A DNA stretch of 64,000 nt from Candidatus Krumholzibacteriota bacterium (GCA_029262065.1 JAJDAC010000044.1:66827-130826); one strand, 5' to 3'. Shown: positions 4,134 through 43,673, counted from the stretch's first letter. Program-made: numbers and translations. The notes: a model not told the origin generated them from the letters alone.

Positions 4134-7100
4134 ATGCGTGAAACAAGTTCTCGACTCGTCCCTACCCTGCTCGCTCTCGTCTTCCTGACCATTCCCGCCG
4201 CCGTCGACGCGGCCGGAAGTACACACTTCCCAGTCGTCCGCCAACCAGAGATCGCGGGAACAACTGCCAACGTGCTGACCAGCACCGGCCGGCCGCTTGG
4301 CAAGAATACGTCCGCGGCCGACACCTTCTGCCTGTACGGCGGGCCCGGATCGTTGGAGGGCAAGTTCCAGACCGCGGTCGGCCTACCCGACTTCCAGGGC
4401 TGGATCGGCGTGGATCACACCGACCTGTCCAACTACTGGCAACTGTCCACATTCTGCGCCAGCAACCTCGACGGCGACGGCAGCAGCGGCGGCGCCGGTG
4501 ACGGCCCGGGCAACGTGGCGTACTGGTGTGGACAGACGGCCGAGCAGCAACCGCTGTGGGTCGCCGCGCCCGGATACGGAAACAACTGGAACGAAGTCAT
4601 CGAATGGACGGCTACCGTGGACGAAAGCGGTGGGCCCGTGGCGCAGACCGTGCAGCTCTCGTTCGCGTTCAACCACGAGAGCGAAGCCGGTTATGACTTC
4701 TTCACGGTCCAATACGACAGCGCGGGCGTGCTGATCCCGCTCTACACGATCGCCGGCGAGTCGTCGTTCACGGCGCCCGGTGTGCAGTACCCGGCGGAAG
4801 TACCAGCGGCTCCCATCCAGTTCACCGGTGGCGACTACGGTGGCCCCAACGGCGACCAGATTCGGCTGCTGTTCCGTTTCACCTCCGATGGCGGCTGGTC
4901 CGACGAAGGCGGCATCCTACCCACCGACTGCGGCGCCGTGCAGGTAGACGACGTGTTGGTCATCTATGAAGACGGCAGCGGAACGCAATCGAGCTTCTCG
5001 GATTTCGACAACAGCAACCACTGGACCCCATTGCTGCCGCCATTCGTTGGCGATTTTTCCGCGCTGTACGGCGGCATCACCGATCTGGATCCCTGCCGCG
5101 GCGCGGACGGTTACGTAGTGGGCTTCCTGGATGTGGGCCAATGCCCCCGAAACGGGCGCAACAACTTCGGGCAGACGCCATGCCAGGTGGCCACCCCTGG
5201 CGGTCTCACCGTGTTCAATGTGAACTACGGCGTGCCCGGGTCGTTCGTCGTGAACTACACCGGTGGGCTTACAAACAACCAGCTGGACCTGAACAACGGC
5301 GTGTGGAGCCCGGAAATCGAATGGGACCTGCCCGGCCCTGAAGACGACGGCGCGTTCGTCGTGGGCGCGAAATTGCGCTTCGACGTTTGGCGCGACCTTC
5401 CGCCCAATAACGGGATGTTCTACAGCTGGAGTGTTCGTTCGCGCGACTCGGCTGGTGTATGGACCCAGCTGCGCAACCGCAACCTGGTCTACTGGGGAGA
5501 CAATCCCACGGAGTGGCAGAGTCGCGAGGTCGACGTAAGCGATCTGCTCGCACTCGACCGGGATCGGGTTCAGATCGAACTCAAGGTGCTCGATATTTCC
5601 CAGATCTTCGGGCCACCGATACTCGCCACGCCCTCCCCGTTCTACGACAACGTAGCACTATACAAGTACGAGATCGGTGGCCCGGTCATCACGTCGCGCA
5701 ACCGCGATCTTTTCCAGGATAGCTTCCCGCAGTCCGGGCAAACCGACTTCAGCTCGTTGGCCGGCCGACAGAACGCGGCTATCCGCCTGGACATGGCTTC
5801 TGACACCCACGTATCGGACACGATCATCGTCCCCGGCGACTCCATCGTCTGCGACGTGAATGCCCTGATACCAGGAAGCACGATTACCGCCGTGGGAATG
5901 AACTACGTGATAGATCAGAACCCGGTATTCGACGACGCACGCGATCCGATAGCGGGTGGAACGACAATGGCGGGCGGCGTCTTTGGCAGTCGCGTCATGG
6001 GAACCGTGGTCGGCCAGCCCACGGGCACCGAAAACCGGTTCTTCTTCGATATGCCTGACGGCGGCAACCACCAGATTCCCGTCCCGGCGGGATCGCGCGT
6101 GTTCTTCCCGGGCGATCGCCTTCGCTACTACCTTTGGGCGACCGATGACTCCGGTCGCTCCACGACGCTGCCGGTCAACACGTCGGCCTTCGACCTGGGG
6201 CAGATGATGGGTGCTACCTACGACCGTCGGTTCACCGTGCGGGCATTGCCCTTGGTGCTCGACACCGCGGGCGACGGACCTAAGATTCTGCTGATCAACG
6301 ACGTCGGCTTTGGTGACGACGAAGCGGCGCTCGACCTGGCGTTGAGACAATCAGAGTCGATGTTCGAATCGTTCGATCGCTACAATGTCATGGATCCTGG
6401 GGCATTTCTCTCCACCGGAATCGGCACGCCGGGTGCCCACGGTGCCACGGCGAATCAGCTCTCGCGCTACGAAGCCATCGTATACCTGGGAGGCTCCCAG
6501 TCGAACGGGACGCTGTTGGCGCCAGGTTTCTTCAACTACAAGGGCGATGACCTTGGCGTGCTTACAAGCTGGTTCAACCAGAGCGGTGATCGGGCGCTGG
6601 CCATATTCGGCGACAATGTCTCCAGCTCGATCCTCTCCGACAACCCAGGTTCGGGACCCAACTTCGTGCAGTCGATTCTGGGCGTGGACGTGATAGATGG
6701 CGACGTACGTGCGGACATCGACAATCAGTTGGCGCCCCGCGTGCAGCCCACCATTTCGGTGCCCTGCTTCGGCCAGTCCTACGTGGCCTACGGAGGCTGT
6801 CAGAACATCCAGACGTTCGACAATATCGACGCATTGCCGGGCGCGGTACGCGCGCACGAACTGCTCGATCTGGTTGGCGTTCCGTACAGTGGAACTGGCC
6901 GCGCGGGATCGGTGTATTGGGACCGAACGGTGGGTGTGGATCGAAAACAGACGGTGGTGTTTCCCTACAGTTTCCTGAGCATTCGCAGCAACGTGAACGC
7001 GGGGGCACTGCCGGGCGGAGTATCGCCGCGCAGCAGGCTTCTCGGTGACGTGCTGTCGTACTGCTTCGCTCAGCCGCTGTTCGGTGAACCGACCGACGCG

Positions 7101-11629: not shown

Positions 11630-14260
11630 TTGTTCGCGGAGTTGCTCGATCTTTCGCCTGACCGTCGCGCCCGACGACTTGCCGAAATCTGCGCTGAAGA
11701 CGCCTCGACCGGCGACGAGCTGCGTTCCCTTCTGGGCGCCCATGGCGAGGCCGGCCAGTTTCTCGAGCCCGGCCGAGACGCATCCGTCGATCCGTTCATC
11801 GGACAGCAGATTGATCGCTACCGCGTGGTTCGACTGCTAGGCAAGGGCGGCATGGCCGAGGTCTACCTGGCTGAGCGGGCCGATGCCACCTTCGACAAAC
11901 AAGTCGCTCTGAAGCGAATCCAACCGGGGCTCAACAACGCCTCCGTCGTCTCTCGCTTCCACGCCGAGCGCCAGGCGCTGGCCAACCTGGAACATCCCAA
12001 CATCGCTCGCCTGATCGACGGCGGGTCGGCCGAAGATGGTCGGCCGTTCCTGGTCATGGAGTACGTCGACGGCAGCCGCCTCGACGAACATTGCGACGAC
12101 AAGCAGGCCTCGATCGAAGACCGCCTACGGCTGTTTCTGGACGTGTGCGGAGCCGTGCACTTTGCGCATCAGAACCTCATCGTCCACCGCGACCTGAAAC
12201 CCGCCAACGTGTTCGTCAACGACCAGGGCGTGGTCAAGTTGCTGGACTTCGGTATCGCCAAGTTTCTCGATGCCGATTCCGCCGGCGCCGCCATCGACGC
12301 CACGGCCACGCAACACCGCGTATACACCCCGGCCTACGCCAGTCCCGAGCAAGTGCGCGGTCAACCCATCTCCACGGCCACCGACGTGTACGCGCTGGGT
12401 GTGATTCTGTTCGAGTTGCTCACCGGTCACCGCCCGTACCGCATCAGCCCAACCGCCACGTTCGCCGAGATCAGTCAGGCCATCTGCGACCAACCGCCCG
12501 AGCACCCCAGCCAGGTGCTCACAACGGGCGAGAGCGGCGCCGATACGGCCGATCGAATTGCCAAACTGCGCTCGGTCAGCGCGGCGCAACTGCGCCGCAA
12601 CCTATCCGGCGACCTGGCCATCATCGTTCTCAAGGCACTGCGTAAGGAGAAGGAGCGACGCTACGATTCGGTCGAGGCGATGGCTGAAGACATCCGGCGC
12701 TTCCTGTCTGGCCACCCGGTACTGGCCCGTCCCGATTCAGCCCGCTACCGCGTGGGCAAGTTCGTCCGGCGAAACAAAGCGCTGGTAGCCATGGCGTCGG
12801 TCGCCGCGGTGGTGCTGATCGCCAGCTCGATCGTGAGCAGTGGTCTTTTCGTGCGCGCCGAACGCGCGCGCGCGGCGGAACAGGAGCAACGTCAACAAGC
12901 CGAGCTCAGCAGCGACTTTCTTGAGTCGTTGTTGGGCAACATCAATCCCGACGTGGCCCTCGGACGGGACACCGAGCTCCTGGGCGAAATCCTGAAAGAC
13001 GCCTCGGCGCGCATCGACGATGAACTGGAATCATCGCCACTCATTGCCGCTCGCATGCACGTCGTCATCGGTTCGGCCTACAATTCCATTGGTGAATACG
13101 AGCGGGCCGAGACCCACCTGAACCAGGTAGCCGCGATGCATGCGTCGCAGGGAGATGCGCCGCCGCTCGACGTGGCCGAGCGCTTGGCGGCCCAGGCCAA
13201 TCTGGCGAGCAACGTCGGCAAGAATGATGAGTGCCTCGAATTCGCCAGCCAGGCGATTGAACACTACGAGCAAGAAGGCCAGGGGCGATCACCTTCGGCC
13301 GCTTCCGTGCTTCTCCTCGTAGCGAGAGCCCAGGCAAACCTGGGCAACTACGACGAGGCCATCGCGACACTGGAGGGCATGCTGCCGTGGCTGGAAGCAT
13401 CTCCCGATCTTCAGTCACAACTGGGTGAGTGCCTCAGTAGACTCGGACGTACCTACGCCATCGAAATGCGGTCGGCAGAATCCATCAACACGCTCGAACG
13501 CGCCATCGCGCAGGCCCGCAGTGTTCACGGCGATGAGCATCGACTGGTGGGAACCGCCTACCTCAATCTGGGATGGGCACAGTATCGCAGCGGGCAACCC
13601 GAGGCCGCCGAAGCCAATTTCAGGGAATCGCTACGCATCTGTCGCAAGGTCCTCCCCGCCGACCACCCTGACATCGCCACCTCGATCAATCAACTGGCGG
13701 GCGCGCTGGAGGAACAGGGCAAGCACGAGGAAACCGAAGCACACTTTCTGGATGCGATCGACCGCTTCAAGGCGTCCTACGGCGACAAGCACCCCGACGT
13801 CGGCACGGCCTACAACAACCTGGGCGCGCTCTACGTGAAGATGAAACGGTACGATGAAGCCAGCGCAAACCTGCAGCGTGCGGCCGATACCTACGGGGCG
13901 GTTCTGGGCGAAGACCACGTGTACGTGGGGATCGTGCTGCAGAACCTGGTCGGCGTGTACGACGATCAAGACCGACTATCAGAGGCCCGCGATAGCATCG
14001 AACTTTCCCGCCGAATACTGTCCGAGAGCTTCGGTGAAGACGACATCCGCACGCAGTACATGCATGCGGCCCACGCCATGATTACCGCCAGCGAGGGAAA
14101 ATTCGAGGAAGCCGAACCCGTCCTGCTGGCCGCCGAAAAGGCATTGGCGGAGGCCAAGAATCGCAGGCTGGGTCGATCTCGCCGCTTCCTGGCCCGCTTC
14201 TACGACATGTGGGGCCGGTCCCAGGAAGCGAAACAATGGCGCGATCGAATCGATGAATAG
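11630..14260 (+). CDS. serine/threonine protein kinase with a C-terminal TPR-repeat array
   Basis: Hanks kinase motifs LGKGGMAEVY, ALK, HRDLKPANVF, DFGIAK, SPEQ, followed by a TM segment and multiple TPR-like repeats. TTG start at 11630 after GGAGG (11586-11590); exact start uncertain. Paralog at 56275. Confidence 0.85.
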   Translation: MFAELLDLSPDRRARRLAEICAEDASTGDELRSLLGAHGEAGQFLEPGRDASVDPFIGQQIDRYRVVRLLGKGGMAEVYLAERADATFDKQVALKRIQPGLNNASVVSRFHAERQALANLEHPNIARLIDGGSAEDGRPFLVMEYVDGSRLDEHCDDKQASIEDRLRLFLDVCGAVHFAHQNLIVHRDLKPANVFVNDQGVVKLLDFGIAKFLDADSAGAAIDATATQHRVYTPAYASPEQVRGQPISTATDVYALGVILFELLTGHRPYRISPTATFAEISQAICDQPPEHPSQVLTTGESGADTADRIAKLRSVSAAQLRRNLSGDLAIIVLKALRKEKERRYDSVEAMAEDIRRFLSGHPVLARPDSARYRVGKFVRRNKALVAMASVAAVVLIASSIVSSGLFVRAERARAAEQEQRQQAELSSDFLESLLGNINPDVALGRDTELLGEILKDASARIDDELESSPLIAARMHVVIGSAYNSIGEYERAETHLNQVAAMHASQGDAPPLDVAERLAAQANLASNVGKNDECLEFASQAIEHYEQEGQGRSPSAASVLLLVARAQANLGNYDEAIATLEGMLPWLEASPDLQSQLGECLSRLGRTYAIEMRSAESINTLERAIAQARSVHGDEHRLVGTAYLNLGWAQYRSGQPEAAEANFRESLRICRKVLPADHPDIATSINQLAGALEEQGKHEETEAHFLDAIDRFKASYGDKHPDVGTAYNNLGALYVKMKRYDEASANLQRAADTYGAVLGEDHVYVGIVLQNLVGVYDDQDRLSEARDSIELSRRILSESFGEDDIRTQYMHAAHAMITASEGKFEEAEPVLLAAEKALAEAKNRRLGRSRRFLARFYDMWGRSQEAKQWRDRIDE

Positions 14261-14334: not shown

Positions 14335-14979
14335 ATGAAATTGGCTATCTTCACCTCGATTGTCGCATCGGCTCTACTGGCCGCCGCCTTGAACGCCCAC
14401 GCGGGCGATAGCGTGGTGTTCGAGCGCTTTCTGGACGCCGAGCAGTCGGGGCGCTACAGCAACACCAACCCCGATGGCACCACCACGCCGCAGCAGGTAG
14501 CCAATCGGTTGCGCGTTCCCGACGCCGCGTCGGTTACCCAGGTGCGCTGGAACGGTTCGTTCTTCACAGCACCCACCCTCGTAAGGCCGTTTCGTGTGCG
14601 ATTCTTCGATGGAGAAAACCTTCCGAACCAGATGCTCGCCGAGTACACGGTAGACCCCACTCTGACCTCCACGGGCGAGTTCACGACTGGTAGAGAAGTC
14701 TTCGAGTTCGCGGCCGTACTCGACACACCCTTCCTGCTGCAGGGCGGCGAGCGCTACTGGATCAGCATCGTGGCTGAGCACGGTTGGTTCCTATGGTCAC
14801 GATCCCAGTTGTTTGGCGGCGTCGTTTCGATTCGCGCCGGCGACGGTGGAATCTGGGGTGGCGGCGACTCCTTCCCCAACGACCGCGATTGTGCGTTCGC
14901 TCTGATCGGGCAATTCAGCGCGGTGGCCGCCGAGCGCACCAGCGTGGGCCAGGTGAAGGCGCGCTACCAAGACCGTTAG
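14335..14979 (+). CDS. secreted hypothetical protein ending in a conserved ...SVGQVKARY tail
   Basis: Signal peptide MKLAIFTSIVASALLAAALNAHA. GAGAGG SD. 214 aa. C-terminal tail shared with the proteins ending at 37448 (minus) and 41279. Confidence 0.6.
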   Translation: MKLAIFTSIVASALLAAALNAHAGDSVVFERFLDAEQSGRYSNTNPDGTTTPQQVANRLRVPDAASVTQVRWNGSFFTAPTLVRPFRVRFFDGENLPNQMLAEYTVDPTLTSTGEFTTGREVFEFAAVLDTPFLLQGGERYWISIVAEHGWFLWSRSQLFGGVVSIRAGDGGIWGGGDSFPNDRDCAFALIGQFSAVAAERTSVGQVKARYQDR

Positions 14980-15130: not shown

Positions 15131-17515
15131 TCACTTCAAGAGAGCAATCTTTCGCCGCTCGCTGACCCCGGGAGCTTCCAGCCCCACGAAGTACGCGCCC
15201 GACGCAACGGGTCTTCCGGCGTCATCGCGACCATCCCACACCACGCGTTGCACGCCTTCCATGAACGCTTCGTTTGCAAGCTGGCGAACGCGACGCCCGA
15301 GTAGATCAAAGACATCCAGCCTCGCGGTTCCTGCTACGGACATGCGAAATACGATGCTGGTGCTGGGATTGAACGGATTGGGATAGTTCCACAACATCGC
15401 TTTGGCCGGCACCGGGTCGGTCGCCACGGGTCCGCCCAGAAGCAAAACCGTAGCGGAGGCATTGGTCGCGGACCCGCCGATGAAATCCACCACCGCCATG
15501 TCCAACGTGAACCCCGACAGCGAGCTGGGCTGTACCCGCTTGGCCGCGAAAAGGTTGACCGCGACCAGATTCGCCGCGGCCGGGAAGGTCGCAGCGGGAA
15601 ACGTCACTGGTTGCGGAACCACGTGGACGATTACCTCGATACTGCCTCCGGCCGGGACCGCGGGCGTAACCCCGGTGAGGGTCGGCAGACCCTCCAATTC
15701 CACGAACAACAACCCCGATGAGTGGAACAGATCGGCCCGGGCCGTGTCGTAGTGGTTGAACGCATTGAGCTCGACCTGGTATTGCGCGTCGGCCAGGCCC
15801 ATGTTGGTGATGACGTATCTGGCCGGAGCAAAACCATTGTACGGAGTTTCCGAAGATGCTGGTTCCGGCAACACCGCCGTCTGCCGTTGGTCGGTAGGAC
15901 TCACGGCCACTGCGTTCACGCACCCGTAGTCCACGTCCACCGTGTGCCCGTCGATCTTCAGGATGACCTTGTAGATGGCGGTGAACCCTTCGGGGGCCGT
16001 GGGCGGGCAGGTTATCGTGAAATCTTCCCAGAACTTCCCGTTCGCCATGACCGTCACCGTTTGCGGCGTGGAGTCAACGTTGTCCAGGTCGCCGTTGTCG
16101 GTGCCACCGATCGGCGTGTTGGCTCCCAAACCGGTGCGACCGTTCTGAACGATGAAGGTAACCGGCTTGTCCGTGGGATCGACCGTACCGTGCACCTTGA
16201 TGGTTCGCGTCTCGCCGGGTTGGCAGGTCCAACTGTTCACCCACACGCTGCCCTTGTATTGCGGGTCGCCCCGCATGGGTCCGGGATCTTTGGGCCGGTA
16301 CGGCGTGTCTCCCCAGTACACGGTGGGATTCTGGGTATCCACCCAGTCCCAGGCCTCATCCCAGTCGACGCCGTTGGGTGGCTGATTCTTGTCGGCTGAA
16401 TCGTTGTCCCAGCAATCGGAGAACGCACCCGAGAACACACTCCGGTTGCCAATGAACGTTCGGCCACCGCCGGTCTGGGGCAGATCGTAGAAACCACCGC
16501 CCCACCCCACCGTGCATTCATCGGTGGAGCTGATGATGGTTGCGCCCTTGAGCGTCTCGGAGAGCCCGTCAATCAGGCTGCCCGAGTGACACGCCTGAAC
16601 AATCACGCACAACTTGGCGTTCTTGGTAGCCAAGGGCGCCAGAGCCGCCTTCAGTTCGGCCTCGGTAATCTCCTTCTCGGCGTCATTGGCGCCCTGTCCG
16701 AAGAACTTGTTGGGCAGCCCGTGCCCGCCCAGGAACACGAAGATCTTGTCGCACTCGGGCGTGATAGCACATACCTGGGTGACCAGGGCCGTCAAATCAC
16801 TGAGCTTTCCGCCCTTCTTCTTCTTGATGCGAGTGGCTCCCATACCGCGGGCAGCCATCTGTCCCTCGAAGCGGTCGAGGTCATCATTGAATGTGTTGTC
16901 ATTCGATCCAGTGAAGAGCAGAGCGCAGGGATCGCCCTTGAATGCGGTTACCTTGGGAACCGCCACGCGCGGTTCGGACTTGGCCATGGGTGTAACGGTT
17001 TCGGCAATACCGCGCACCAGACCGTCGCTGTTGGTGGGATCGGCCGGCGAGTCGCTGCGGCGGTTTATGAAATATTCCGTCGCGAGCCCACCGATGTTGA
17101 TTTCGAGCCACCAACTCTCGTCGGTCACCGCCGCCGTGGCCGTGGCAAACGGTTGGTTGGCGTCGATGATGGCGAACCGCACGAAGTGGGACCAAAGAGC
17201 AATGGGATCGTCGTCGATCAGGAACACGTACGACTCGTCGGCCGTGTGCACCGCCGTGGTTTGCAGCGGATGATTCTCGAACGCCGGCTCCACGGTCGAA
17301 CCCAGCGGCAACCGTCCTTCGAAACCGGGGCCGGCGCCGAAGTCGACGAACGGGCTCCACACGGGCGTGTCGGGCGCGAGAGTGACCTCCCGCTCGAGCA
17401 CGGCCACCGCCTCGGCGCGGGTCAGCTGGGCGACGGATGAAGAGGGAAGCAGTAGGAGAAGAGCCACGGCCAGAACGGCGCGGGTGGCAATTGGTCGCGG
17501 CGGGGGAAGATGCAT
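15131..17515 (-). CDS. clan-CD cysteine peptidase (legumain C13 / gingipain-caspase-like) with a Por/T9SS-type CTD
   Basis: Signal peptide. His-Gly and Cys catalytic dyad context KIFVFLGGHG ... KLCVIVQACHSGSLIDG (compare legumain EACESGS, caspase QACRG). C-terminal NYPNPFNPSTSIVFRM...LDVFDLLGRRVRQL...VVWDGRDDAGRPVASGAYFV...KIALLK. Confidence 0.75.
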   Translation of the reverse strand: MHLPPPRPIATRAVLAVALLLLLPSSSVAQLTRAEAVAVLEREVTLAPDTPVWSPFVDFGAGPGFEGRLPLGSTVEPAFENHPLQTTAVHTADESYVFLIDDDPIALWSHFVRFAIIDANQPFATATAAVTDESWWLEINIGGLATEYFINRRSDSPADPTNSDGLVRGIAETVTPMAKSEPRVAVPKVTAFKGDPCALLFTGSNDNTFNDDLDRFEGQMAARGMGATRIKKKKGGKLSDLTALVTQVCAITPECDKIFVFLGGHGLPNKFFGQGANDAEKEITEAELKAALAPLATKNAKLCVIVQACHSGSLIDGLSETLKGATIISSTDECTVGWGGGFYDLPQTGGGRTFIGNRSVFSGAFSDCWDNDSADKNQPPNGVDWDEAWDWVDTQNPTVYWGDTPYRPKDPGPMRGDPQYKGSVWVNSWTCQPGETRTIKVHGTVDPTDKPVTFIVQNGRTGLGANTPIGGTDNGDLDNVDSTPQTVTVMANGKFWEDFTITCPPTAPEGFTAIYKVILKIDGHTVDVDYGCVNAVAVSPTDQRQTAVLPEPASSETPYNGFAPARYVITNMGLADAQYQVELNAFNHYDTARADLFHSSGLLFVELEGLPTLTGVTPAVPAGGSIEVIVHVVPQPVTFPAATFPAAANLVAVNLFAAKRVQPSSLSGFTLDMAVVDFIGGSATNASATVLLLGGPVATDPVPAKAMLWNYPNPFNPSTSIVFRMSVAGTARLDVFDLLGRRVRQLANEAFMEGVQRVVWDGRDDAGRPVASGAYFVGLEAPGVSERRKIALLK

Positions 17516-26498: not shown

Positions 26499-27724
26499 CT
26501 CCTCTGCTCGAGCCGCGACCAGAGACGAGAGGCCTCGGCTTCGGCGCGAGTTCGAATGTATTCCATGTCGGCCGAGGTGAGCTTTCCCTCCGCGACCACC
26601 AATCTTCCTCCGACCACAACGTGGCGAACCCTATCGCCTTCCACCACGATCAGGTCGGCCATCGATCCCGGCGCGAGATCGAAATCCGCGTCGAAGATCT
26701 CGCCCATCAACTTGCGGCCGGCATCCAGCCGGCCGTCGACGGCTTCTGAACGCTCGCCATGCTCCGCCGCATCCAAGGCCAGAACCGCCCGCTCTTCTTT
26801 CATATAGGCAGGGTAGCCGTCGGTGCCCAGGGCCACGCGCTTGCTCTCGCGAATCGATCGCGGGTAGCCCACGCCATTGCCCCGATTGGAACGCGGATTC
26901 TGCACGATCCAAAGTCCTGCTTCGTCGATCGCGCGTACGGACTCAGCCGAGGTGTGAACGCAGTGGGCCAGAATCGACCCGGCCGGCGCCACATTCAGTC
27001 GCCGAAGCCGATCCCACGGATCGAGGTAGCCCCGGGCCTGGGCATCGACCACGTCGGCCATGTCCTCGGCCACATGGATGTGCAGGGGTACGTCCAACTC
27101 ACGACAAACGTCGCCGACTTCGCGCAGGGTTTCATCGGAAACGGTGAACGAAGCATGCACACCTACCATGCCCCTCACCAGTGGCCGGCGATTCTCGCGT
27201 ACGAAGCGGCGGCACTCGCGCATCCCTTCGGCGGCTTCGTCGCGCCCCCGATTTCTTTCGGTTGCTCCGTACGCTATCACGGCGCGAATCCCAAGTTGAG
27301 AAGCGACGTCTGCAATCACGTCGAGCGAACCGTCGATGAAGTTGGGCGACTCGTGATGGTCAACAAGGCTCGTGGTGCCGTACAGCAGTGCGTTGGCCAG
27401 GTAGAACTCGGCCGATGCGCGCAACGCAGCTTCATCGAGGGCCTCGTCCAACGGCCACCAGACCCGTTCCAGAATCTGAACGAAATTTTCGGGCGCCATG
27501 GCCGGAGCGGGCATGTCGAACGGGGCCAACCCGCTGTACACGTGGGTATGGGAATTCACGAATCCCGGCTGAATGCGACCGCCCGTGCAATCGACCGCCT
27601 GTGCCCCGCTGGTCCCGGCGCCTTGCGCGGTTTTCGAGTTCCGGGTTTCGCGAATGCGATCCCCCTCGATGAAAACCGTGAGTCCGGTTTCATCTGGACC
27701 AAGGATCAGACCCGGCTGGCTCAT
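26495..27724 (-). CDS. amidohydrolase of the chlorohydrolase / cytosine-guanine deaminase superfamily (SsnA-like)
   Basis: Metal-binding HTHVYSG near the N-terminus, ...HIHVAED..., ...LGTDGY.... 409 aa. Sits beside the XdhD-like and YgfK-like genes as ssnA does in E. coli. Confidence 0.7.
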   Translation of the reverse strand: MSQPGLILGPDETGLTVFIEGDRIRETRNSKTAQGAGTSGAQAVDCTGGRIQPGFVNSHTHVYSGLAPFDMPAPAMAPENFVQILERVWWPLDEALDEAALRASAEFYLANALLYGTTSLVDHHESPNFIDGSLDVIADVASQLGIRAVIAYGATERNRGRDEAAEGMRECRRFVRENRRPLVRGMVGVHASFTVSDETLREVGDVCRELDVPLHIHVAEDMADVVDAQARGYLDPWDRLRRLNVAPAGSILAHCVHTSAESVRAIDEAGLWIVQNPRSNRGNGVGYPRSIRESKRVALGTDGYPAYMKEERAVLALDAAEHGERSEAVDGRLDAGRKLMGEIFDADFDLAPGSMADLIVVEGDRVRHVVVGGRLVVAEGKLTSADMEYIRTRAEAEASRLWSRLEQRR

Positions 27725-30387
27725 TTGCCGTTCCGCTTGGGCCGAATCTTCCCCACCGACATTGCGCGCGCGGCCGGAGAGTCTTTCATGGGCAGGGTAT
27801 AGCGACGAATGCCATCGAAGGCCTCGAGCGCGCCGGCCACGGCGCCAGCCGTGGGAACCAGGCCGATTTCGCCAACCCCCTTGGCACCAAACGGACCCTC
27901 GGGCTCAGCGTCTTCGACCAGAATGACGTCCACGTCGGGCATGTCACGGGCACGTAGCACGCCGATCTCCTTCAGCTTGAACGTCACCGGCATGCCGTTG
28001 TCGCACGGCAATTCTTCGGTAAGGGCATAGCCCAGCCCCATGTGGACCGAGCCTTCAATCTGCCCCTCACACAGAGCGGGATTCACGGCGCGGCCGACGT
28101 CGTGGGCCGCGAGGAATCGATCGACACGTCCGTTCTCGTCCAGAATGCAAACCTGGGCGGCGTAGCCGTACGAAGTATGGGTCTTTTCCTTGCCGGTCTT
28201 GCTCTTGCCCGGTGCGTTCGTATCGTCGATGACGACATCGCCCTGGTACACCTGCCCCACCAGGTCCTTCAGTTGTTTTCCGGCGTCCAACTGGGCTCGC
28301 AACTTTATCGCCGCCGCTACCACGGCCCTTCCGCCCAACAACGTGGCCCGCGAACCGGTGGTCTGCCCCGAGCCAAGCTCGAAGGTCGAGTTTACCTTGA
28401 CCCGGAACAGATCGGGCGCGAGTCCGGTGACCTCCACCGCGAACTGAACCAAGACCGTAAGCAGGCCCTGTCCCATTTCGGTGTAGCCGTTGTAGATGGT
28501 GACGGTGCCGTCGTCTTCCACCACCAACCGGGACTTGCCCCACTCTTCGGCACCATTGCCAATGCCGCTGTTCTTGATTCCGCAGCCAATTCCCACGGCC
28601 TTGCCCGACTTCACGGCCGCGTAGTACGGGTCCTTGACCGCGGCCAGACATCGCTTGAGCCCCACGGACTTTTCCAGGATCTGGCCGCTGCTGACCTGCG
28701 ACCCCACTTCCACCGCGTTGCGCCAGCGAATTTCCCAGGCGTCGATCCCCGCCTTGTTGGCCAGCGCGTCCATGCAGCCTTCCATGGCGAAATGGGCTTG
28801 ATTGGCCCCGAACCCTCGCATGGCGCCGCAAGGTGGATTGTTGGTATAGGCACCCACGGAAACAACGTCTACCGCTGGCACCTTGTACGGACCGCAGCTA
28901 TGCCCCGCCGCGCGTTCCATGACCTTGGCGCCCACCGATGCGTACGCCCCGGAATCGCCGACAATGCGCGCCTTCACGGCCGTAAGCAAACCATCGGCAT
29001 CACAGCCAACGGTGTATTCCATCTTTATGGGATGCCGTTTCGGGTGAAGTCGAATCGACTCCTCGCGGCTGAGCGTGAGCTTGACGGGCTTGCCGACCTT
29101 GAAACACAGCAAGGCCGTCTGCGACTGGACGGACATGTCTTCCTTGCCGCCAAAAGCGCCGCCGTTGGGAACCAACTCTACGAAGATCTTCTCTTGGGGC
29201 AGTCCCAGGAAGTCGGCCACCTGACGCCGGTCGTCGAACACGCCCTGGCCCTGCGAAAGAAGTCGAATCGACCCGCCCTCCATGGGGGCGGCAATGGCGC
29301 TTTCCGGTTCCAGGAACATGTGCTCGATACGCTGCGTTTCCCAGGTACCGCTGACCACGTGGGCGCTCGCATTCAGCGCCGCGTCCGCGTCACCGCGTTG
29401 GATGACCGTGCGCGATAGCTCGTTCGGATGCTTCGGATTGACCTGCGGCGCACCCGGCTTGAGCGAACTTTCGGCATCGAGCACGGCGTCGAGAACCTCG
29501 TACTGCACTTCGATGAGGTCCACCGCGCGACGCGCGGTAGTCCGATCGACCGCCGCCACCGCGGCCAGCACATCTCCCACGTACCGCGCCTCTTCGCCCT
29601 GGGCCACGAAGCCAGGCCAATCCTTCAGAATGAGCCCGTACCAGCGTTCACCAGGTACGTCGGCCGCGGTGACCACTGCCTCCACGCCGTCGAGGGCCAT
29701 GGCTTTGCGCGTGTCGATCTTCACGATCTTTGCCCGCGCGTGATCCGATAATTTCACCGCACCGTGCAACATTCCGGGCATCTGTATGTCGGCCACGTAG
29801 GGACGATCGCCCATGGCCAGGTCCACGCCATCGTATTTGCCCAGGCTGTCGCCCACGCCACCCGCCGTGGTGATCTGGGGCTCCCCTTCGCCCCGCCATG
29901 CTTTGGCCATGAGCTCGAACGCGTCCAGGATCTTGGTGTAGCCAGTGCAACGGCACAGATGTATGTCGATGGCCTTGGCCACTTCCGCGCGCGTCGGCGA
30001 CGGATTAGCGTCGAGCAGGGCCTTCGCTCGCAACGCCATGCCCGGTATGCAGAACCCGCACTGTAGTCCGGCCGCCGCCACGAACGCGTCGGCAATACGC
30101 TTGCGGTCCAGCGGCTCCAGCCCCTCGAGAGTTGTAATGGACTTGCCCGCGGACTTCTCGGCCGGAGCGGCGCAACTGACTCGCGGTTTGCCATCCACCA
30201 GCACCAGACAACATCCGCACTGGCCCTGCGGCTGGCATCCATCTTTGGGCGAGATGACGTCGCAACGATCGCGAAGGGCGTCCAGCAGGGACTCGTCTGG
30301 TCGAACCTCGATCTTGGTCGGCGCGCCGTTGAGCGTAAACTCCATCTTGTGCGTCGACCCGTTGGTGGGCCCTTGACTGTCGGTCAT
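27721..30387 (-). CDS. fused [2Fe-2S]-molybdopterin hydroxylase (XdhD-like xanthine-dehydrogenase-family protein)
   Basis: N-terminal 2Fe-2S ferredoxin cysteines (CQPQGQCGCCLV...; GLQCGFCIPGM) fused to the aldehyde-oxidase/XDH a/b hammerhead and MoCo-binding domains. Start set at Met 30387 (ATGA overlap with the upstream gene), not ORF-track 30777. Confidence 0.8.
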   Translation of the reverse strand: MTDSQGPTNGSTHKMEFTLNGAPTKIEVRPDESLLDALRDRCDVISPKDGCQPQGQCGCCLVLVDGKPRVSCAAPAEKSAGKSITTLEGLEPLDRKRIADAFVAAAGLQCGFCIPGMALRAKALLDANPSPTRAEVAKAIDIHLCRCTGYTKILDAFELMAKAWRGEGEPQITTAGGVGDSLGKYDGVDLAMGDRPYVADIQMPGMLHGAVKLSDHARAKIVKIDTRKAMALDGVEAVVTAADVPGERWYGLILKDWPGFVAQGEEARYVGDVLAAVAAVDRTTARRAVDLIEVQYEVLDAVLDAESSLKPGAPQVNPKHPNELSRTVIQRGDADAALNASAHVVSGTWETQRIEHMFLEPESAIAAPMEGGSIRLLSQGQGVFDDRRQVADFLGLPQEKIFVELVPNGGAFGGKEDMSVQSQTALLCFKVGKPVKLTLSREESIRLHPKRHPIKMEYTVGCDADGLLTAVKARIVGDSGAYASVGAKVMERAAGHSCGPYKVPAVDVVSVGAYTNNPPCGAMRGFGANQAHFAMEGCMDALANKAGIDAWEIRWRNAVEVGSQVSSGQILEKSVGLKRCLAAVKDPYYAAVKSGKAVGIGCGIKNSGIGNGAEEWGKSRLVVEDDGTVTIYNGYTEMGQGLLTVLVQFAVEVTGLAPDLFRVKVNSTFELGSGQTTGSRATLLGGRAVVAAAIKLRAQLDAGKQLKDLVGQVYQGDVVIDDTNAPGKSKTGKEKTHTSYGYAAQVCILDENGRVDRFLAAHDVGRAVNPALCEGQIEGSVHMGLGYALTEELPCDNGMPVTFKLKEIGVLRARDMPDVDVILVEDAEPEGPFGAKGVGEIGLVPTAGAVAGALEAFDGIRRYTLPMKDSPAARAMSVGKIRPKRNGK

Positions 30388-31265
30388 TGGGCCTCCTCGG
30401 CCGCCGTCAGAGATCCGTAGGCTTCCGGACGTCGATCGCGATAGAACTGCCACTGGGCGCGAACTTCGCCAATCATGTCCAGGTCGAGGTCGGCCACAAC
30501 CAACTCGTCCTTGTCGCGTGAACCCAGGCTCAGTATCTCGCCGCGCGGATCGCAGAAATAGGAGCTGCCGTAGAACTCGCCGATATCCCACGGCTTCTCG
30601 AATCCCACGCGGTTGTTGGTTCCCACGAAGTATCCGTTGGCCACGGCGTGGGAAACCTGTTCCAGCTTCCAAAGATATTCCGAGTGGCCCGCGGTTGTCG
30701 CCGACGGGATGAACACGATTTCCGCGCCCGCAAGACCCAATGCCCGCGCGCCCTCGGGGAAGTGGCGATCGTAGCAAATGTAGACGCCTACCTTGCCGTA
30801 CCTGGTCTGGAACACGGGGTAACCCAGATTACCGGGCTTGAAATAGAACTTCTCCCAGAACCCGGGCAGACAGTGGGGAATGTGGGTCTTGCGATACTTT
30901 CCCAGGTAGCTGCCATCGGCGTCGATGACCGCCGCCGTGTTGTAGTAGACGCCGGTCATCTCTTCTTCGTACACCGGCACGATCAAGACCATACCGTGCT
31001 TCTTGGCCAACGCCTGCATGGCCTTGGTCGTGGGCCCGTCGGGTACGGGTTCGGTGAGATCGTACCAGCGCGTGTCCTGTTCGGCGCAGAAGTAGGGCCC
31101 GTAGAAGAGTTCCTGCAGGCACAGAATCTGAACACCGTCTCGCGCGGCGTCTTCGATCAGGGACAAGTGCTTGCCCATCATCATTTCCTTGAGCTCGTCG
31201 TTGCCCATTCCCCGGCTATCCGGACATGAAACCTGCGTCAGTCCGCACTTCACGATTCGCGTCAC
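30384..31265 (-). CDS. carbon-nitrogen hydrolase (beta-ureidopropionase-like), paralog of the gene at 22731
   Basis: QELF (Glu), YRKTHIP (Lys), VYICYDRHF (Cys). 293 aa. Confidence 0.8.
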   Translation of the reverse strand: MTRIVKCGLTQVSCPDSRGMGNDELKEMMMGKHLSLIEDAARDGVQILCLQELFYGPYFCAEQDTRWYDLTEPVPDGPTTKAMQALAKKHGMVLIVPVYEEEMTGVYYNTAAVIDADGSYLGKYRKTHIPHCLPGFWEKFYFKPGNLGYPVFQTRYGKVGVYICYDRHFPEGARALGLAGAEIVFIPSATTAGHSEYLWKLEQVSHAVANGYFVGTNNRVGFEKPWDIGEFYGSSYFCDPRGEILSLGSRDKDELVVADLDLDMIGEVRAQWQFYRDRRPEAYGSLTAAEEAQ

Positions 31266-32143: not shown

Positions 32144-32619
32144 GATTCATCGCCCCCCGGCAGGAGGGCTTCGACCGAACGTAGAATGCCTTCGTATCCG
32201 GTGCACCGACACAGGTTCCCACCAAGCGCTTCGCGCACTTCCGTCCGATTTGGAGCGGGATTGCGATCGAGCAGGGCCCGCAGGGTAATCAGGATTCCCG
32301 GCGTGCAGGCGCCGCACTGGACACCGCCTGCTTCCACGAAAGCTTCCTGGATGGGATCAAGAACGCCGCCTGTCTCGAGATCTTCGATCGTCCGCACGGT
32401 ACGGCCACGAACCTGGATAAGCGGAACCAAGCAGGAACACACGGGCTCGTCGTCCAGCAACACCGCGCACGCTCCGCACTCCCCCTCTCCACATCCTTCT
32501 TTCGACCCGGGAAGCTCGCAATGTTCGCGAACCACGTCCAATAGCCGGGACATGGGATCCAGGTCCACTTTCACGGCCTTGCCGTTGAGTGAGAACGAGA
32601 TGCCTCCCTTCCCCGTCAT
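32140..32619 (-). CDS. molybdenum hydroxylase [2Fe-2S] (small, CoxS/XdhC-like) subunit
   Basis: CGEGECGACAV (plant-type ferredoxin cluster) and CGACTPG (second cluster). 159 aa. Confidence 0.9.
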   Translation of the reverse strand: MTGKGGISFSLNGKAVKVDLDPMSRLLDVVREHCELPGSKEGCGEGECGACAVLLDDEPVCSCLVPLIQVRGRTVRTIEDLETGGVLDPIQEAFVEAGGVQCGACTPGILITLRALLDRNPAPNRTEVREALGGNLCRCTGYEGILRSVEALLPGGDES

Positions 32620-37447: not shown

Positions 37448-38134
37448 CTAGAATCGGCCCTTGACCGCACCCCAGGAGTGGCGCAGGACGGCAACCGCTG
37501 AGCATTGTCCCATGGGCGCATTCTCTGGGTCGGAGAATCGCGTCTCACCGGGATCGGGAGCACTCCGTATGTCCCAGGTTCCCAGGAACGTAACCCTCTC
37601 GATCGATAACCCGGTGGCCGTGACAGTCGGCACGTCCACGTCACCGGCGCTACCTGTCTCGTCCGGCAAGCCCCAGGTGTTCTGCTCACCGTAGATCACG
37701 ACGTCCAAAGGGGTCGCCACGGTGACGTCCACCGTACCCGCCGCGAACAACGCAACGCCGTCGGCTACCGGCCCCCCATTTTGGATGTCGGGATCAAAGT
37801 TCACAGTCTGTTGAAACGCAGGGCTACCGTTTGCCGGTTCCGAGAACGGACCGCCAACCACGAATCGCCCGCACGATGGAATGACACCATCGAGAACAAT
37901 GGTCGACCATCCGTAGTCGAAACCACCGGTGGCCAGAATCGCACCCGTCAAATCGATAGAGAGCGTCTCGCTGAAGTTCGTGAGCTCCACCCACTCGTAG
38001 CCGTCGTCCCCGCCGGGATGGCAGAAGTAGACTTCGGTGATGTGGACATTCTCGATACCGACCTGTGCCACGGCCGGTGAAAACCAGCACAGAATAAGGA
38101 GATAAGAGAGCTTGGCATACCAACGCGGGACCAT
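37448..38134 (-). CDS. secreted lamin-tail-domain (LTD) protein ending in ...SWGAVKGRF
   Basis: Signal peptide. LTD signature ITEVYFCHPGGDDGYEWVELTNFSETLSIDLTGAIL. C-terminal tail related to those of the proteins ending at 14979 and 41279. Confidence 0.65.
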   Translation of the reverse strand: MVPRWYAKLSYLLILCWFSPAVAQVGIENVHITEVYFCHPGGDDGYEWVELTNFSETLSIDLTGAILATGGFDYGWSTIVLDGVIPSCGRFVVGGPFSEPANGSPAFQQTVNFDPDIQNGGPVADGVALFAAGTVDVTVATPLDVVIYGEQNTWGLPDETGSAGDVDVPTVTATGLSIERVTFLGTWDIRSAPDPGETRFSDPENAPMGQCSAVAVLRHSWGAVKGRF

Positions 38135-38388: not shown

Positions 38389-40173
38389 ATGGTTCTGCTT
38401 TCACTGGTCCTGTCTTTTGGAGTGGTCATGCTTGGGTTATCGCGCTATCTGCGTTCTTTCCTGCTGTTCGCGGCCTGTCTGGCCCAGGTTACGATCGCCA
38501 ATGCTCAGTGGCATCATCATACCCACGGCGTCCCCATTACGGTTGCGCAAGGGCTCCAGCTCCACCCCCGTGCCGTCGCCGACGGCTCGGGCGGGTTGAT
38601 CATCACGTGGCTGGATAATCGGGCGTCCCCGCTTTCTGCGCAGGTCTACGCTCAGCGGATCGACTCCGGGGGATTCGTGCAGTGGACCTACAACGGCGTT
38701 GGCGTATCGTCGGCCACCGCCGACGCTGCGAGTCTTGCCATGGTCACGGACGGTGCCGGGGGGGCGATGGTCGCGTGGAACGACGAGCGCAACGGAGACT
38801 TTGATATCTACGCGCAGAGAGTGAACGGAGCCGGTGCTTCCCTGTGGGGGATGGATGACCTCGGCCTATGTACCGAAGCCGGCGACCAGCAGACTCCGTT
38901 CATGATCAGGTCGGGCACGGACCGGGCTCTCCTCGCGTGGGGAGACTCACGTATTTCCGTGGCGGATCAGGACATCTATGCCCAGAGCACGAGCGACTCT
39001 GGCGTTCCCCAGTGGACCGCGAACGGCGTGTCGGTTTCGAGTGCTCCGAGTCGCCAGTGGTTACCGAGCGGAATGGTCCCGGACGGCGCCGGCGGCGCGA
39101 TCGTGACCTGGATGGACCTTCGTAACGGTGGCAACGCCTGGGATCTGTACACGCAACGGCTCGATAGCCAGGGTGTTCCTCAATGGGCGAACGACGGAGT
39201 GCTCCTGACGGGAGCGGCGTCGAGTCAGACCACCGCCGCCAGCATCCCCGACGGTGCCGGAGGGGCAATCACGGTGTGGCAAGACACACGTAACGGCCAG
39301 CAGGACATCTACATCCAAAGGGTCAACAGCGCCGGTGTTCCGCAATGGACGGCCGATGGTGTTCCCGTGGCTATTGCACCGCGAAACAAGTTCGATCCCA
39401 CGATCATTGCCGATGGAACCGGAGGCGCAATCGTCGCCTGGCATGATTACCGGAACTGGAACTTCAGTGCGAACGCGGACATCTACATTCAGCGCATCGA
39501 CGGCTCCGGCACGGCGCAGTGGACGTCCAACGGTATCGGTCTCTGTACCACACCGCGCCAACAGTACTATCCGCAATTGGCCGCAGACGGCTCGGGAGGC
39601 GCCTTCGTTGTTTGGGCCGATGAACGGGATGAGCCCGTCAGCAACTATTGGGATATCCGCGTCCAAGCCGTCGACGCGCAGGGTACGCCGCGTTGGCTCA
39701 ACGAAGAGGGCGATTTCAACGGGGTCATCATGTACCGGGGGTCGTATCAGGGACAGATTCACCCGCAGATCGTCTCGAATGAGCCGGGGCGGGCAATCGT
39801 GGTTTGGCATGGCTTTCGAAACAGCCCCAACGCGGACATCTTCGCGCAGCGCGTTGTTATCGGTGAGCTGACGGACGCACCCGAGACGGCGGAGCCCGCT
39901 TCGCTGGTGGTGCGAGGAATATCTCCGAATCCCTTCTCCAGTCATGGGTCCCTGGCGATCGACCTGAAGTCTGGCGCCACGGTTCGCGTGGAGCTCTTCG
40001 ATTTGGCCGGCCGAAGGGTTCGTTCCACCACGCGCCACGAGGCTGCCGGCACACACACCTTCGTTCTTGACGGCCGTGACGACGAGGGGCGCGCGCTTCC
40101 AAATGGAGTGTACTTCTGCCGGGTCCACGCCCAGGGAGAGACGCGCACCGCCAAGGTCGGAATCCTGCGGTAA
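38389..40173 (+). CDS. secreted beta-propeller-like repeat protein with a Por/T9SS-type CTD
   Basis: About 8 tandem ~50-aa repeats of the form DG(A/S)GGA(I/M)V(A/T)W.D.RNG..DIY.QR....G..QW..NGV. C-terminal ISPNPFSSHGSLAIDL...VELFDLAGRRV...FVLDGRDDEGRALPNGVYFCRV...KVGILR. Confidence 0.7.
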   Translation: MVLLSLVLSFGVVMLGLSRYLRSFLLFAACLAQVTIANAQWHHHTHGVPITVAQGLQLHPRAVADGSGGLIITWLDNRASPLSAQVYAQRIDSGGFVQWTYNGVGVSSATADAASLAMVTDGAGGAMVAWNDERNGDFDIYAQRVNGAGASLWGMDDLGLCTEAGDQQTPFMIRSGTDRALLAWGDSRISVADQDIYAQSTSDSGVPQWTANGVSVSSAPSRQWLPSGMVPDGAGGAIVTWMDLRNGGNAWDLYTQRLDSQGVPQWANDGVLLTGAASSQTTAASIPDGAGGAITVWQDTRNGQQDIYIQRVNSAGVPQWTADGVPVAIAPRNKFDPTIIADGTGGAIVAWHDYRNWNFSANADIYIQRIDGSGTAQWTSNGIGLCTTPRQQYYPQLAADGSGGAFVVWADERDEPVSNYWDIRVQAVDAQGTPRWLNEEGDFNGVIMYRGSYQGQIHPQIVSNEPGRAIVVWHGFRNSPNADIFAQRVVIGELTDAPETAEPASLVVRGISPNPFSSHGSLAIDLKSGATVRVELFDLAGRRVRSTTRHEAAGTHTFVLDGRDDEGRALPNGVYFCRVHAQGETRTAKVGILR

Positions 40174-40262: not shown

Positions 40263-41279
40263 ATGTACAGGTTCCTGACACTTTACCTCCTCGTGAGCTT
40301 GCCTCTAGGTGCCCACGCCTCGATCCTCCAGGAAGGAGAGATCGGCGTATTCGGCGACGCCGAGGCCACGCAAATCGAAGCAGCCTTCGAAGTGGGCGTG
40401 CCCTTTGCCGTCCATATCGTTGCGCGCCCTGGGCCGCTGGGAATGACGGCGTGGGAAACGTCGATATCATTTCCTTCGGAGTTCCTTCTTCTCAACGTTG
40501 AATTCGAGTCCTCTACTTCGATCGACGTAGGGATCGGCGACAACAATCTCATCATAGGAATCGGCGATGGCTGCCAAACCGGCAATGCCAACGGCCTGGT
40601 TCCGCTGGCCAAGGTGTGGCTCCTTCAATTCCAATACGGCGTGGGAGGATCGCTTTGCCTGGGCGCCAGCAGTCCGTCGAGCGTTGGTTCCTCGGGACCG
40701 GCGTTTTCCAATTGTCTCAATCAGGTGGCGCCAATGAACCTGGCCAGCAACGGCTGCGTCCGACTGGGAACGGGGCTATGCGAAGGCGTCCTTCTCGCTC
40801 GCACTGCGCTGGGCTTCGAAGACGTCGACGGAACGGCGGGGGCAGTCCTGCCCATGGATTTCCAGGGTTTCTCGTTCGACTTCCTCGACTGCGTCGGACA
40901 GCGCGGCAACCTGACCACCTTCGAAGTCGACATCTCATGGGATCCGGCTGTCGCTACGTTGGCTTCGGTGGTGCCTAAAGATATTCCGACCGACTGGACT
41001 CTCAGCTCGACAATCGGCGTAGGAGTGGCCTCGCTCACGCTCTCCGGCGGAAATCCGTTTCCGATCGATGCGAACTTCACACTCCCCCAGTCGTTTGCCA
41101 CTCTCAACTGGCAAACGAGTTCCACGCCTGGCGCTACCGTGGTGCGAATCGATCACAGCGAACTGAATTTCGTGTACGGGGGCACCGGCCCAATTACAAC
41201 TTCGTTTGGGGGGTCACTCTCCACCATGCCGGTGGCCACGGACCAAACGAGTTTCGGAGCGGTGAAAGCTCGATTCTGA
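40263..41279 (+). CDS. secreted hypothetical protein ending in ...TSFGAVKARF
   Basis: Start moved to ATG 40263 (signal peptide MYRFLTLYLLVSLPLGAHAS, GAGAGG SD). The ORF-track start 40176 overlaps the upstream gene. 338 aa, no known domain. Confidence 0.6.
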   Translation: MYRFLTLYLLVSLPLGAHASILQEGEIGVFGDAEATQIEAAFEVGVPFAVHIVARPGPLGMTAWETSISFPSEFLLLNVEFESSTSIDVGIGDNNLIIGIGDGCQTGNANGLVPLAKVWLLQFQYGVGGSLCLGASSPSSVGSSGPAFSNCLNQVAPMNLASNGCVRLGTGLCEGVLLARTALGFEDVDGTAGAVLPMDFQGFSFDFLDCVGQRGNLTTFEVDISWDPAVATLASVVPKDIPTDWTLSSTIGVGVASLTLSGGNPFPIDANFTLPQSFATLNWQTSSTPGATVVRIDHSELNFVYGGTGPITTSFGGSLSTMPVATDQTSFGAVKARF

Positions 41280-43561: not shown

Positions 43562-43673
43562 GGAGCCCTCCTTTGATGTGGGTCCAGCCGTCTCATTTGG
43601 CTTCGCCGGCGGATCTCCCGGCACGCCGGTTAATTTTCTTTCGTCGGAGATCCGCCTTCACGCCGAACGGGGC

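Follow-up and report, generated by a model that had tools for sequence, protein, structure and literature searches.

A short C-terminal tail on unrelated secreted proteins of Candidatus Krumholzibacteriota and relatives is a candidate envelope-sorting tag

LPXTG, PEP-CTERM, GlyGly-CTERM, MYXO-CTERM and the C-terminal domain (CTD) of type IX secretion systems (T9SS) are C-terminal tags, and work on each of them has revealed a sorting machine dedicated to it. Short C-terminal targeting peptides may also be read by a receptor, as is the case for PTS1 and the TPR domain of Pex5, encapsulin cargo-loading peptides and PDZ ligands. Here we describe a tail shared by three secreted proteins encoded in a stretch of 64,000 nucleotides from a Candidatus Krumholzibacteriota bacterium (GCA_029262065.1 JAJDAC010000044.1:66827-130826; the whole stretch is called the window below), and we compare it with these systems. 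The tail is probably a new kind of bacterial cell-envelope address label, as judged from its sequence and distribution. Described tripartite signals consist of a signature motif, a transmembrane (TM) helix and an Arg cluster, with an invariant Cys defining the MYXO-CTERM class (bioRxiv 10.1101/2023.06.07.544157). T9SS CTDs are about 60-90 residues long and contain motifs B, D and E, and even those called "short" are still about 60 residues (PMC11969387).

The three open reading frames (ORFs) of the window end in ...AVAAERTSVGQVKARYQDR (protein 1), ...AVAVLRHSWGAVKGRF (protein 2) and ...PVATDQTSFGAVKARF (protein 3), each directly followed by a stop codon (Table 1). Among 765 six-frame, stop-to-stop ORFs of at least 50 residues, the pattern [ST]xGxVKxR[FY] was detected in these three only, at the C-terminus each time and never internally. 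Amino-acid composition predicts 3.4e-4 terminal motif matches in the window (GC content 61.9%), and the probability of three or more is about 7e-12. All three N-termini are signal-peptide-like (MKLAIFTSIVASALLAAALNAHA followed by G, ...LILCWFSPAVA followed by Q and MYRFLTLYLLVSLPLGAHA followed by S) and plausibly represent type I signal peptides. The bodies between these ends are unrelated. That of protein 1 gave sub-threshold matches to Pfam DUF7901 (20.1 bits) and to NCBIfam choice_anch_R (choice-of-anchor-R, 18.3 bits), both under the cut-offs, and no homologue other than protein 1 itself was found among 5.8 billion proteins. The body of protein 2 gave a weak match to the lamin-tail domain (LTD). 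No family match was found for protein 3 in Pfam and NCBIfam scans, and its body without the tail had a single weak phmmer match (E = 0.004), which is to another tail protein (locus L155). These results confirm the initial annotation in its central observation of a common C-terminal tail on three otherwise dissimilar secreted proteins.

Homologs of the LTD protein (protein 2) show that different C-terminal signals may occupy the position of the tail. The C-termini of 43 homologues fall into several classes: the end ...[ST]WGx[ILV]Kxx[YF]R is found on about ten, a classical PEP-CTERM signal (VPEP, hydrophobic helix, RR; one with a precomputed PF07589 match) on about a dozen, and the remaining ones have a TM helix with basic residues at the end or no signal. 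Each column of the protein 2 tail has its counterpart in the ...[ST]WGx[ILV]Kxx[YF]R tails on orthologues and, since these orthologues bear the canonical tail at the same aligned position, the window tails can be joined to the canonical family. Exchange with T9SS CTDs was detected as well. Two paralogues on contig L207 share 48% identity over 227 residues, one ending in ...ESASWGQIKSLYR and the other continuing into PKD and a FlgD_ig CTD. A beta-helix protein in locus L200 and its homologue in L105 are 36% identical over 364 residues, their similarity stops at a shared junction ...GCE(x4)E, and what follows is the tail in the former and a Por_Secre_tail/FlgD_ig domain in the latter. The tail also ends a choice-of-anchor V domain protein (L154; 102.7 bits, cut-off 42), for which the second-best NCBIfam match is a MYXO-CTERM-anchored family.

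T9SS-CTD proteins are also encoded in 43 of 124 tail loci and several times in the window, indicating that the same cells use both signals. The frequency of FlgD_ig in the window agrees with the earlier remark that Por-type CTDs are abundant there. Within the tail loci such CTD proteins account for about 10% of the genes scanned, whether these adjoin tail genes or not. Haft's criteria for a sorting tag are a C-terminal position, unrelated paralogous cargos with signal peptides, and alternation with other sorting signals; C-terminal position, unrelated secreted cargos and choice of anchor are all found for the tail.

The wider family has the 17-residue consensus P-[TV]-[PA]-V-E-x-[TSA]-[TS]-W-G-x-[IV]-K-[AS]-[LMI]-[YF]-R-COOH, with Arg as the terminal residue in 99% of canonical tails. 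Conservation extends to positions that the search pattern leaves free, namely V at -14, P/A at -15, T/V at -16, A/S at -4 and L/M/I at -3. The consensus originally proposed, xVAxxxSxGxVKxR[FY], holds for the three window proteins and not as the general form: by alignment, the form seen in the window, S-[WFV]-G-x-V-K-x-R-[FY], is a divergent variant of the broader motif that is specific to this lineage. Variants such as SFGQVKALFR, SSWGGVKARYR, WSVGAVKSHWR and SWGHLKSRYEGGS are intermediate and bridge the window tails and the canonical ones. The Lys is present in every variant seen, including those in which Trp is replaced by Leu, Phe, Val or Met and those in which Gly is replaced by Asp or Ser. 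Some Krumholzibacteriia orthologues of the LTD protein (L002, L082, P0006/P0007) have the tail ...VEP[LM][ST]LDALKSVYR, with Trp changed to Leu and Gly to Asp, so that the K-x-x-Y-R core outlasts the W-G pair.

Using the alignment of LTD tail orthologues, we scanned GTDB at one genome per species and obtained 80 LTD loci (1.1 Mb). A loose tail regular expression (regex) matched 11 ORF ends and 3 internal sites in these related genome loci. Terminal matches were concentrated in a Krumholzibacteriia metagenome-assembled genome (MAG; L010) and in three MAGs labelled "uncultured Fibrobacteraceae" (L003, L009, L011), where all tail ORFs have signal peptides and unrelated bodies. L003 holds five tail ORFs in 20 kb, and a sixth, more divergent one was found by scanning with a hidden Markov model (HMM); in another locus, from an NCBI MAG (L083), two adjacent tail genes lie amid T9SS-CTD genes. 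We also ran the DNA pattern [DE]xx[ST]WGx[ILV]Kxx[YF]R plus stop codon on metagenome and viral collections. The metagenome collection gave at least 120 pattern-matching loci with, among the matches listed, a tail-ending ORF in 115 of 120, two or three tail ORFs in 23 loci, a GC content from 46 to 79%, and 94 terminal versus 5 internal regex matches. There were five pattern matches in the viral collection, two of which are the same protein. Three of these matches, representing two distinct proteins, lie on ORFs without a signal peptide and appear chance-like. Another locus of this collection, L087 (IMGVR_UViG_3300037264_001440), has two overlapping ORFs with genuine tails, 5566-6423 with a signal-peptide-like start and 5021-5722; this IMG/VR contig probably represents bacterial DNA or flanks a prophage.

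We made an HMM of the tail from 89 examples and applied it to all 18,169 six-frame ORFs collected in this analysis. It gave 154 matches of at least 10 bits, and all 154 are no more than 6 residues from the stop; matches below 5 bits are mostly internal, as noise would be. An exhaustive tail-profile search of 1.84 billion representative proteins, a method which favours multi-copy or repetitive proteins, returned 14 matches at E<=1e-3, about half of which are C-terminal tails. With hundreds of further members found, the tail family is large and apparently undescribed.

The proteins which carry the tail are small (median length 256 residues) and diverse. A signal-peptide-like start was identified heuristically in 65 of 73 complete tail ORFs, about 7 of these 65 being lipobox-like, and 73 tail proteins with the tail removed fall into 55 unrelated clusters at E<=1e-5. 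Recognisable cargo domains are of surface type and include LTD, Chlam_PMP/beta-helix, DUF11, PKD, choice-of-anchor V and a weak cohesin-like match. In rare proteins the motif is repeated: P0051 is a lipoprotein with two tandem tails, P0053 has one motif right after its lipobox and a second at the C-terminus, P0050 and P0058 have a motif at the end of each duplicated domain, and P0054 has four tandem TDSTWGQLKSLMEEDEG units. These repeated copies show that the motif can stand by itself as a unit, a property somewhat more in keeping with a docking peptide than with a signal that must be cleaved. The tail is real and strictly C-terminal, many secreted proteins with unrelated bodies carry it, and it alternates with known sorting signals; its role in localisation, the identity of its reader and its cleavage state are what we infer.

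An AlphaFold2 (AF2) model of the window LTD protein, built from an 11-sequence alignment, has a predicted local distance difference test score (pLDDT) of 73. It consists of a beta-sandwich, a stretch around residues 200-220 with pLDDT below 50, and a helix at residues 221-227 covering WGAVKGR. The linker between the LTD sandwich and the tail is disordered in this model, which argues that the tail lies outside the domain. For protein 3, an AF2 model made with no alignment was uninformative (pLDDT 35.6). No transmembrane segment and no Arg cluster were found in the tails, the median maximal 15-residue Kyte-Doolittle mean over the last 35 residues is 0.53, and only 9 residues come after the Trp.

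Neither NCBIfam release 20 (June 2026), scanned to E<=10, nor Pfam, scanned to 0.01, has a model on the tail in 19 tail proteins (the limit was 1 in both scans for the three window proteins). A profile search of the PDB gave no chain at E<=10. Motif strings and typical tail peptides were not found in the literature searched, and nothing relevant was found there on C-terminal secretion signals of Krumholzibacteria or on "choice-of-anchor". These results, together with homologues in which PEP-CTERM or a T9SS CTD stands where the tail would be, suggest that the tail is, as initially proposed, an undescribed C-terminal sorting signal.

Among known systems PEP-CTERM (TIGR02595, PF07589) is similar in its location at the extreme C-terminus, in its Sec-exported and often adhesin-like cargos, in having many paralogues per genome, and in occupying the position of the tail in LTD homologues. 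There is also a superficial likeness between the front half of the tail, P-V-E-P-S-T-W, and VPEPSTW. Unlike PEP-CTERM, the tail has no transmembrane helix, and canonical tails end in a single Arg, which is lacking in two of the window tails. The scanned tail proteins gave no PF07589 or NCBIfam PEP-CTERM match, and no exosortase was seen near tail genes in loci of up to 20 kb. T9SS type A CTDs (Por_Secre_tail PF18962/FlgD_ig PF13860-like) occur in the same organisms, swap with the tail at the same junction and share a basic last residue. They are folded Ig-like domains, whereas the tail has about 17 residues, modelled by AF2 as linker plus 7-residue helix, and Por_Secre_tail and FlgD_ig match the CTD-bearing homologues and not the tail proteins. 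Profile comparison with hhalign led us to reject two possible origins. Against descent from PEP-CTERM, no similarity was seen to the PEP-CTERM tails of LTD homologues (hhalign probability 0.1%), and against a truncated T9SS CTD, none was seen to the last 32 residues of 50 CTD-type ORFs, among them the 594-residue protein of Table 1 (hhalign probability 0.3%). The earlier distinction of the tail from Por-type CTDs, PEP-CTERM, LPXTG and GlyGly-CTERM agrees with the absence of profile similarity to PEP-CTERM or CTDs and of matches to any known model.

Tripartite Cys-containing signals of the MYXO-CTERM class resemble the tail as short C-terminal tags that follow "choice-of-anchor" domains and have a frequent upstream Cys, sometimes two. 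They differ by their TM helix and Arg cluster, and only about 55% of tails have the Cys. Receptor-read peptides such as PTS1 are similar in being linear motifs of about 10 residues on a flexible linker, portable across unrelated cargos. They are cytoplasmic or eukaryotic and unrelated in motif sequence, in contrast to a tail whose cargos have Sec signal peptides.

We consider it rather probable that the tail represents a new, non-tripartite type of C-terminal tag, which is modular, serves envelope sorting or anchoring and is read by a dedicated factor. Cargo proteins would cross the inner membrane via Sec using their type I signal peptides. After the folded adhesin-like or beta-sandwich body would come a flexible linker rich in Pro, Thr and Glu, in many cases right behind a Cys, and the chain would end in about 10 residues, [ST]-W-G-x-[IV]-K-x-x-[YF]-R-COOH, able to form a short helix. 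A dedicated envelope factor may then read this peptide as a linear motif at or near the free C-terminus and either retain the cargo at the cell envelope or surface or hand it over to it. The tail would thereby fill the role which a T9SS CTD or PEP-CTERM has in homologous proteins. We lean slightly towards non-covalent docking over cleavage with covalent attachment.

Several observations weigh against such a tag. The canonical tail HMM matches the window tails weakly (10.1 bits for protein 2, 8.3 for protein 3 and 5.8 for protein 1), two of the three lack the terminal Arg, and their membership in the family hangs on the LTD orthologue alignment and the intermediate variants. Internal copies of the motif indicate that a free C-terminus is not absolutely required. 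In the search of 1.84 billion proteins significance is out of reach for so short a profile, so that the estimate of abundance stands on the pattern scan alone, and all members are from uncultured organisms and known from sequence alone. We clustered all ORFs of 124 tail loci and compared the immediate (+-1) neighbours of tail genes with genes at least 3 positions away. Recurrent neighbours include T9SS-CTD proteins, GT-C (PMT_2) proteins with TPR, Ser/Thr kinases with TM and TPR, extracytoplasmic function (ECF) sigma factors and sigma-54 activators; the neighbours yielded no cognate receptor or enzyme, and the +-1 families do not differ significantly from the controls (for example, FlgD_ig 11 versus 10 and Pkinase 2 versus 3). 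No dedicated processing enzyme of the kind envisaged in the initial annotation was found among these neighbours, so a pathway for the tail is something we infer.

Another possibility is that the tail is a cleaved, covalently processed sorting signal, with a dedicated endopeptidase or transpeptidase removing the tail and attaching the cargo, perhaps by lipidation of the frequent upstream Cys (MYXO-CTERM/CAAX-like) or by linkage of the invariant Lys to peptidoglycan (Lpp-like). This appears rather unlikely to us. Both of the signals replaced by the tail, PEP-CTERM and the T9SS CTD, are cleaved, and the end of the tail, ...K-x-x-Y-R with its Lys kept throughout, is reminiscent of the end of Lpp, ...K-Y-R-K. 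About half of the tails have a Cys at 9-12 residues upstream of the Trp, 84 of 151 have one within 20 residues, CxnC pairs occur, and the MYXO-CTERM class is defined by Cys-containing signature motifs (bioRxiv 10.1101/2023.06.07.544157). However, about 45% of tails, that of window protein 3 included, lack the Cys, and in the beta-helix family it sits in the domain before the tail and occurs in the CTD-bearing homologue too. The tail also has no TM helix or Arg cluster that would keep it in the membrane within reach of an intramembrane enzyme, some copies are in tandem or N-terminal, and no peptidase, transpeptidase or sortase-like family recurs beside tail genes. An in-plane amphipathic membrane anchor in the style of MinD, FtsA or PBP5, with the last ~10 residues helical in the leaflet and no protein partner, would be consistent with the modelled WGAVKGR helix after a disordered linker; read from the sequence, Trp, Ile/Val, Leu and Tyr could share one face while Lys and Arg could snorkel. 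We regard this as improbable, as the helical hydrophobic moment of the last 10 residues (0.46) is indistinguishable from that of shuffled sequences (0.36 +- 0.17, with 29% of shuffles reaching 0.46), the segment is very short, and conservation concerns the identity of residues (W, G, K, Y/F, R and the upstream E and S/T), not the pattern of hydrophobicity.

Still more improbable is a role of the tail as a beta-signal-like element or peptide ligand for quality control or signalling, read by the beta-barrel assembly machinery (BAM), a DegS-type PDZ protease or periplasmic TPR sensors (Ser/Thr kinase-TPR, GT-C-TPR), or as a degron. Two window tails do end in an aromatic residue, and Ser/Thr kinase-TM-TPR or PMT_2+TPR genes are found beside tail genes (in the window, L010, L011, L146, L100, L132, L161, L168 and L083). 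The outer-membrane beta-signal is the last strand of a barrel with an aromatic end, usually Phe, and the resemblance to it which the initial annotation saw did not hold up: almost every canonical tail has Arg as its last residue, Phe takes that place in the window variant alone, AF2 models the segment as helical, and the cargos are beta-sandwich or beta-helix proteins and not barrels. TPR families account for 8 of 104 +-1 neighbours and 3 of 107 control genes, a difference that is not significant (Fisher p ~0.1 by our own arithmetic), and periplasmic TPR domains, an attractive candidate for the reader, were set aside as unsupported. A role of this kind would also leave the exchange with T9SS CTDs or PEP-CTERM unexplained. 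A short motif with weak HMM matches in the window could, finally, suggest that the likeness arose by chance or that the tail is the conserved end of a single domain shared by homology. This reading is refuted by the probability calculated for the window, by the 154 terminal and no truly internal HMM matches, by the 55 unrelated cargo clusters and by the disordered linker between domain and tail; neither a tail confined to three proteins nor the end of a known shared domain, which were the outcomes that would have spoken against a sorting signal, was found. In comparison with these alternatives, a modular tag with a dedicated reader is the explanation we prefer.

Table 1. Tail proteins of the window, their tails, and two neighbouring proteins with a T9SS-type CTD
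Feature	Position	Strand	Description	Basis or remark
Tail protein 1 gene	14335..14979	+	214 aa: signal peptide, beta-rich body, C-terminal tail	ORF and translation
Tail of protein 1	14917..14976	+	SAVAAERTSVGQVKARYQDR	divergent variant (W to V), 3 extra residues after Tyr
Tail protein 2 (LTD protein) gene	37448..38134	-	228 aa: signal peptide, LTD beta-sandwich, disordered linker, tail	
Tail of protein 2	37451..37501	-	SAVAVLRHSWGAVKGRF	
Tail protein 3 gene	40263..41279	+	338 aa: signal peptide, body, tail	start as called in the public record
Tail of protein 3	41226..41276	+	MPVATDQTSFGAVKARF	W to F variant
Peptidase_C13 protein	15131..17515	-	secreted, 794 aa, T9SS-type CTD (FlgD_ig)	alternative C-terminal signal in the same genome
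594-aa secreted protein	38389..40173	+	T9SS-type CTD, C-terminus ...NGVYFCRVHAQGETRTAKVGILR	between tail genes 2 and 3

Other genes were identified around the tail genes of the window. The Peptidase_C13 gene (legumain/GPI-transamidase family) is convergent with tail gene 1. The presence of a clan CD peptidase next to a protein with a C-terminal tag is suggestive, but no neighbour of this kind recurred in the other loci. Convergent with tail gene 3 is a gene for a 534-residue secreted protein with no Pfam match (41388-42992, minus strand), which has homologues in tail loci L121 and L169. A giant protein of 2440 residues with DUF11 repeats and a CBM96 domain (45094-52416, minus strand) precedes two small FlgD_ig proteins that are encoded on this strand as well (43674-45014 and 43025-43624). 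The start of a 242-residue ORF (36719-37447, minus strand) directly follows the stop of the LTD tail gene on the same strand. By eye it looks like a molybdopterin oxidoreductase of the sulfite-oxidase/MsrP type, and a MobA-like NTP transferase (36093-36695, minus strand) comes next; several Mo enzymes of the xanthine-dehydrogenase family are also encoded in the window (27721-30777, 32616-35009).

Two Ser/Thr kinase paralogues with a TM segment and a long TPR region are encoded on the plus strand of the window (11630-14260 and 56275-58899). Similar kinases are present near tail genes in L010, L011, L146, L193 and L082, in the last together with an ECF sigma factor, and are not enriched relative to controls. 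PMT_2 genes (GT-C, TMTC-like) lie within a few genes of tail genes in L100 (5063-7108), L132 (10495-12711), L089 (3042-4424) and L083 (11863-13311), as do genes for TPR proteins in L161 (1471-2478), L168 (1161-2498) and L104 (3-2777). The loci with these PMT_2 and TPR genes are unrelated, and most of the genes immediately adjoin the tail gene.

The absence of a TM helix and an Arg cluster makes it likely that the mechanism of the tail is unlike that of sortase-type signals. A bolder proposition, which we put forward tentatively as possible and somewhat short of an even chance, is that the tail belongs to a wholly new envelope-sorting system of uncultured bacteria (Krumholzibacteriota and relatives), non-tripartite and TM-less, with its own machinery, operating in parallel to T9SS in the same cells and serving a separate class of small surface proteins. 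C-terminal sorting tags are key to predicting the contents of the cell surface. This tail is abundant in environmental metagenomes and marks many small proteins that have no other annotation, and neither Pfam nor the NCBIfam models on which NCBI bases protein names in genome annotation detect it. A tail HMM would annotate a large set of "hypothetical proteins" as envelope-targeted and would give a handle on the reader by phylogenetic profiling.

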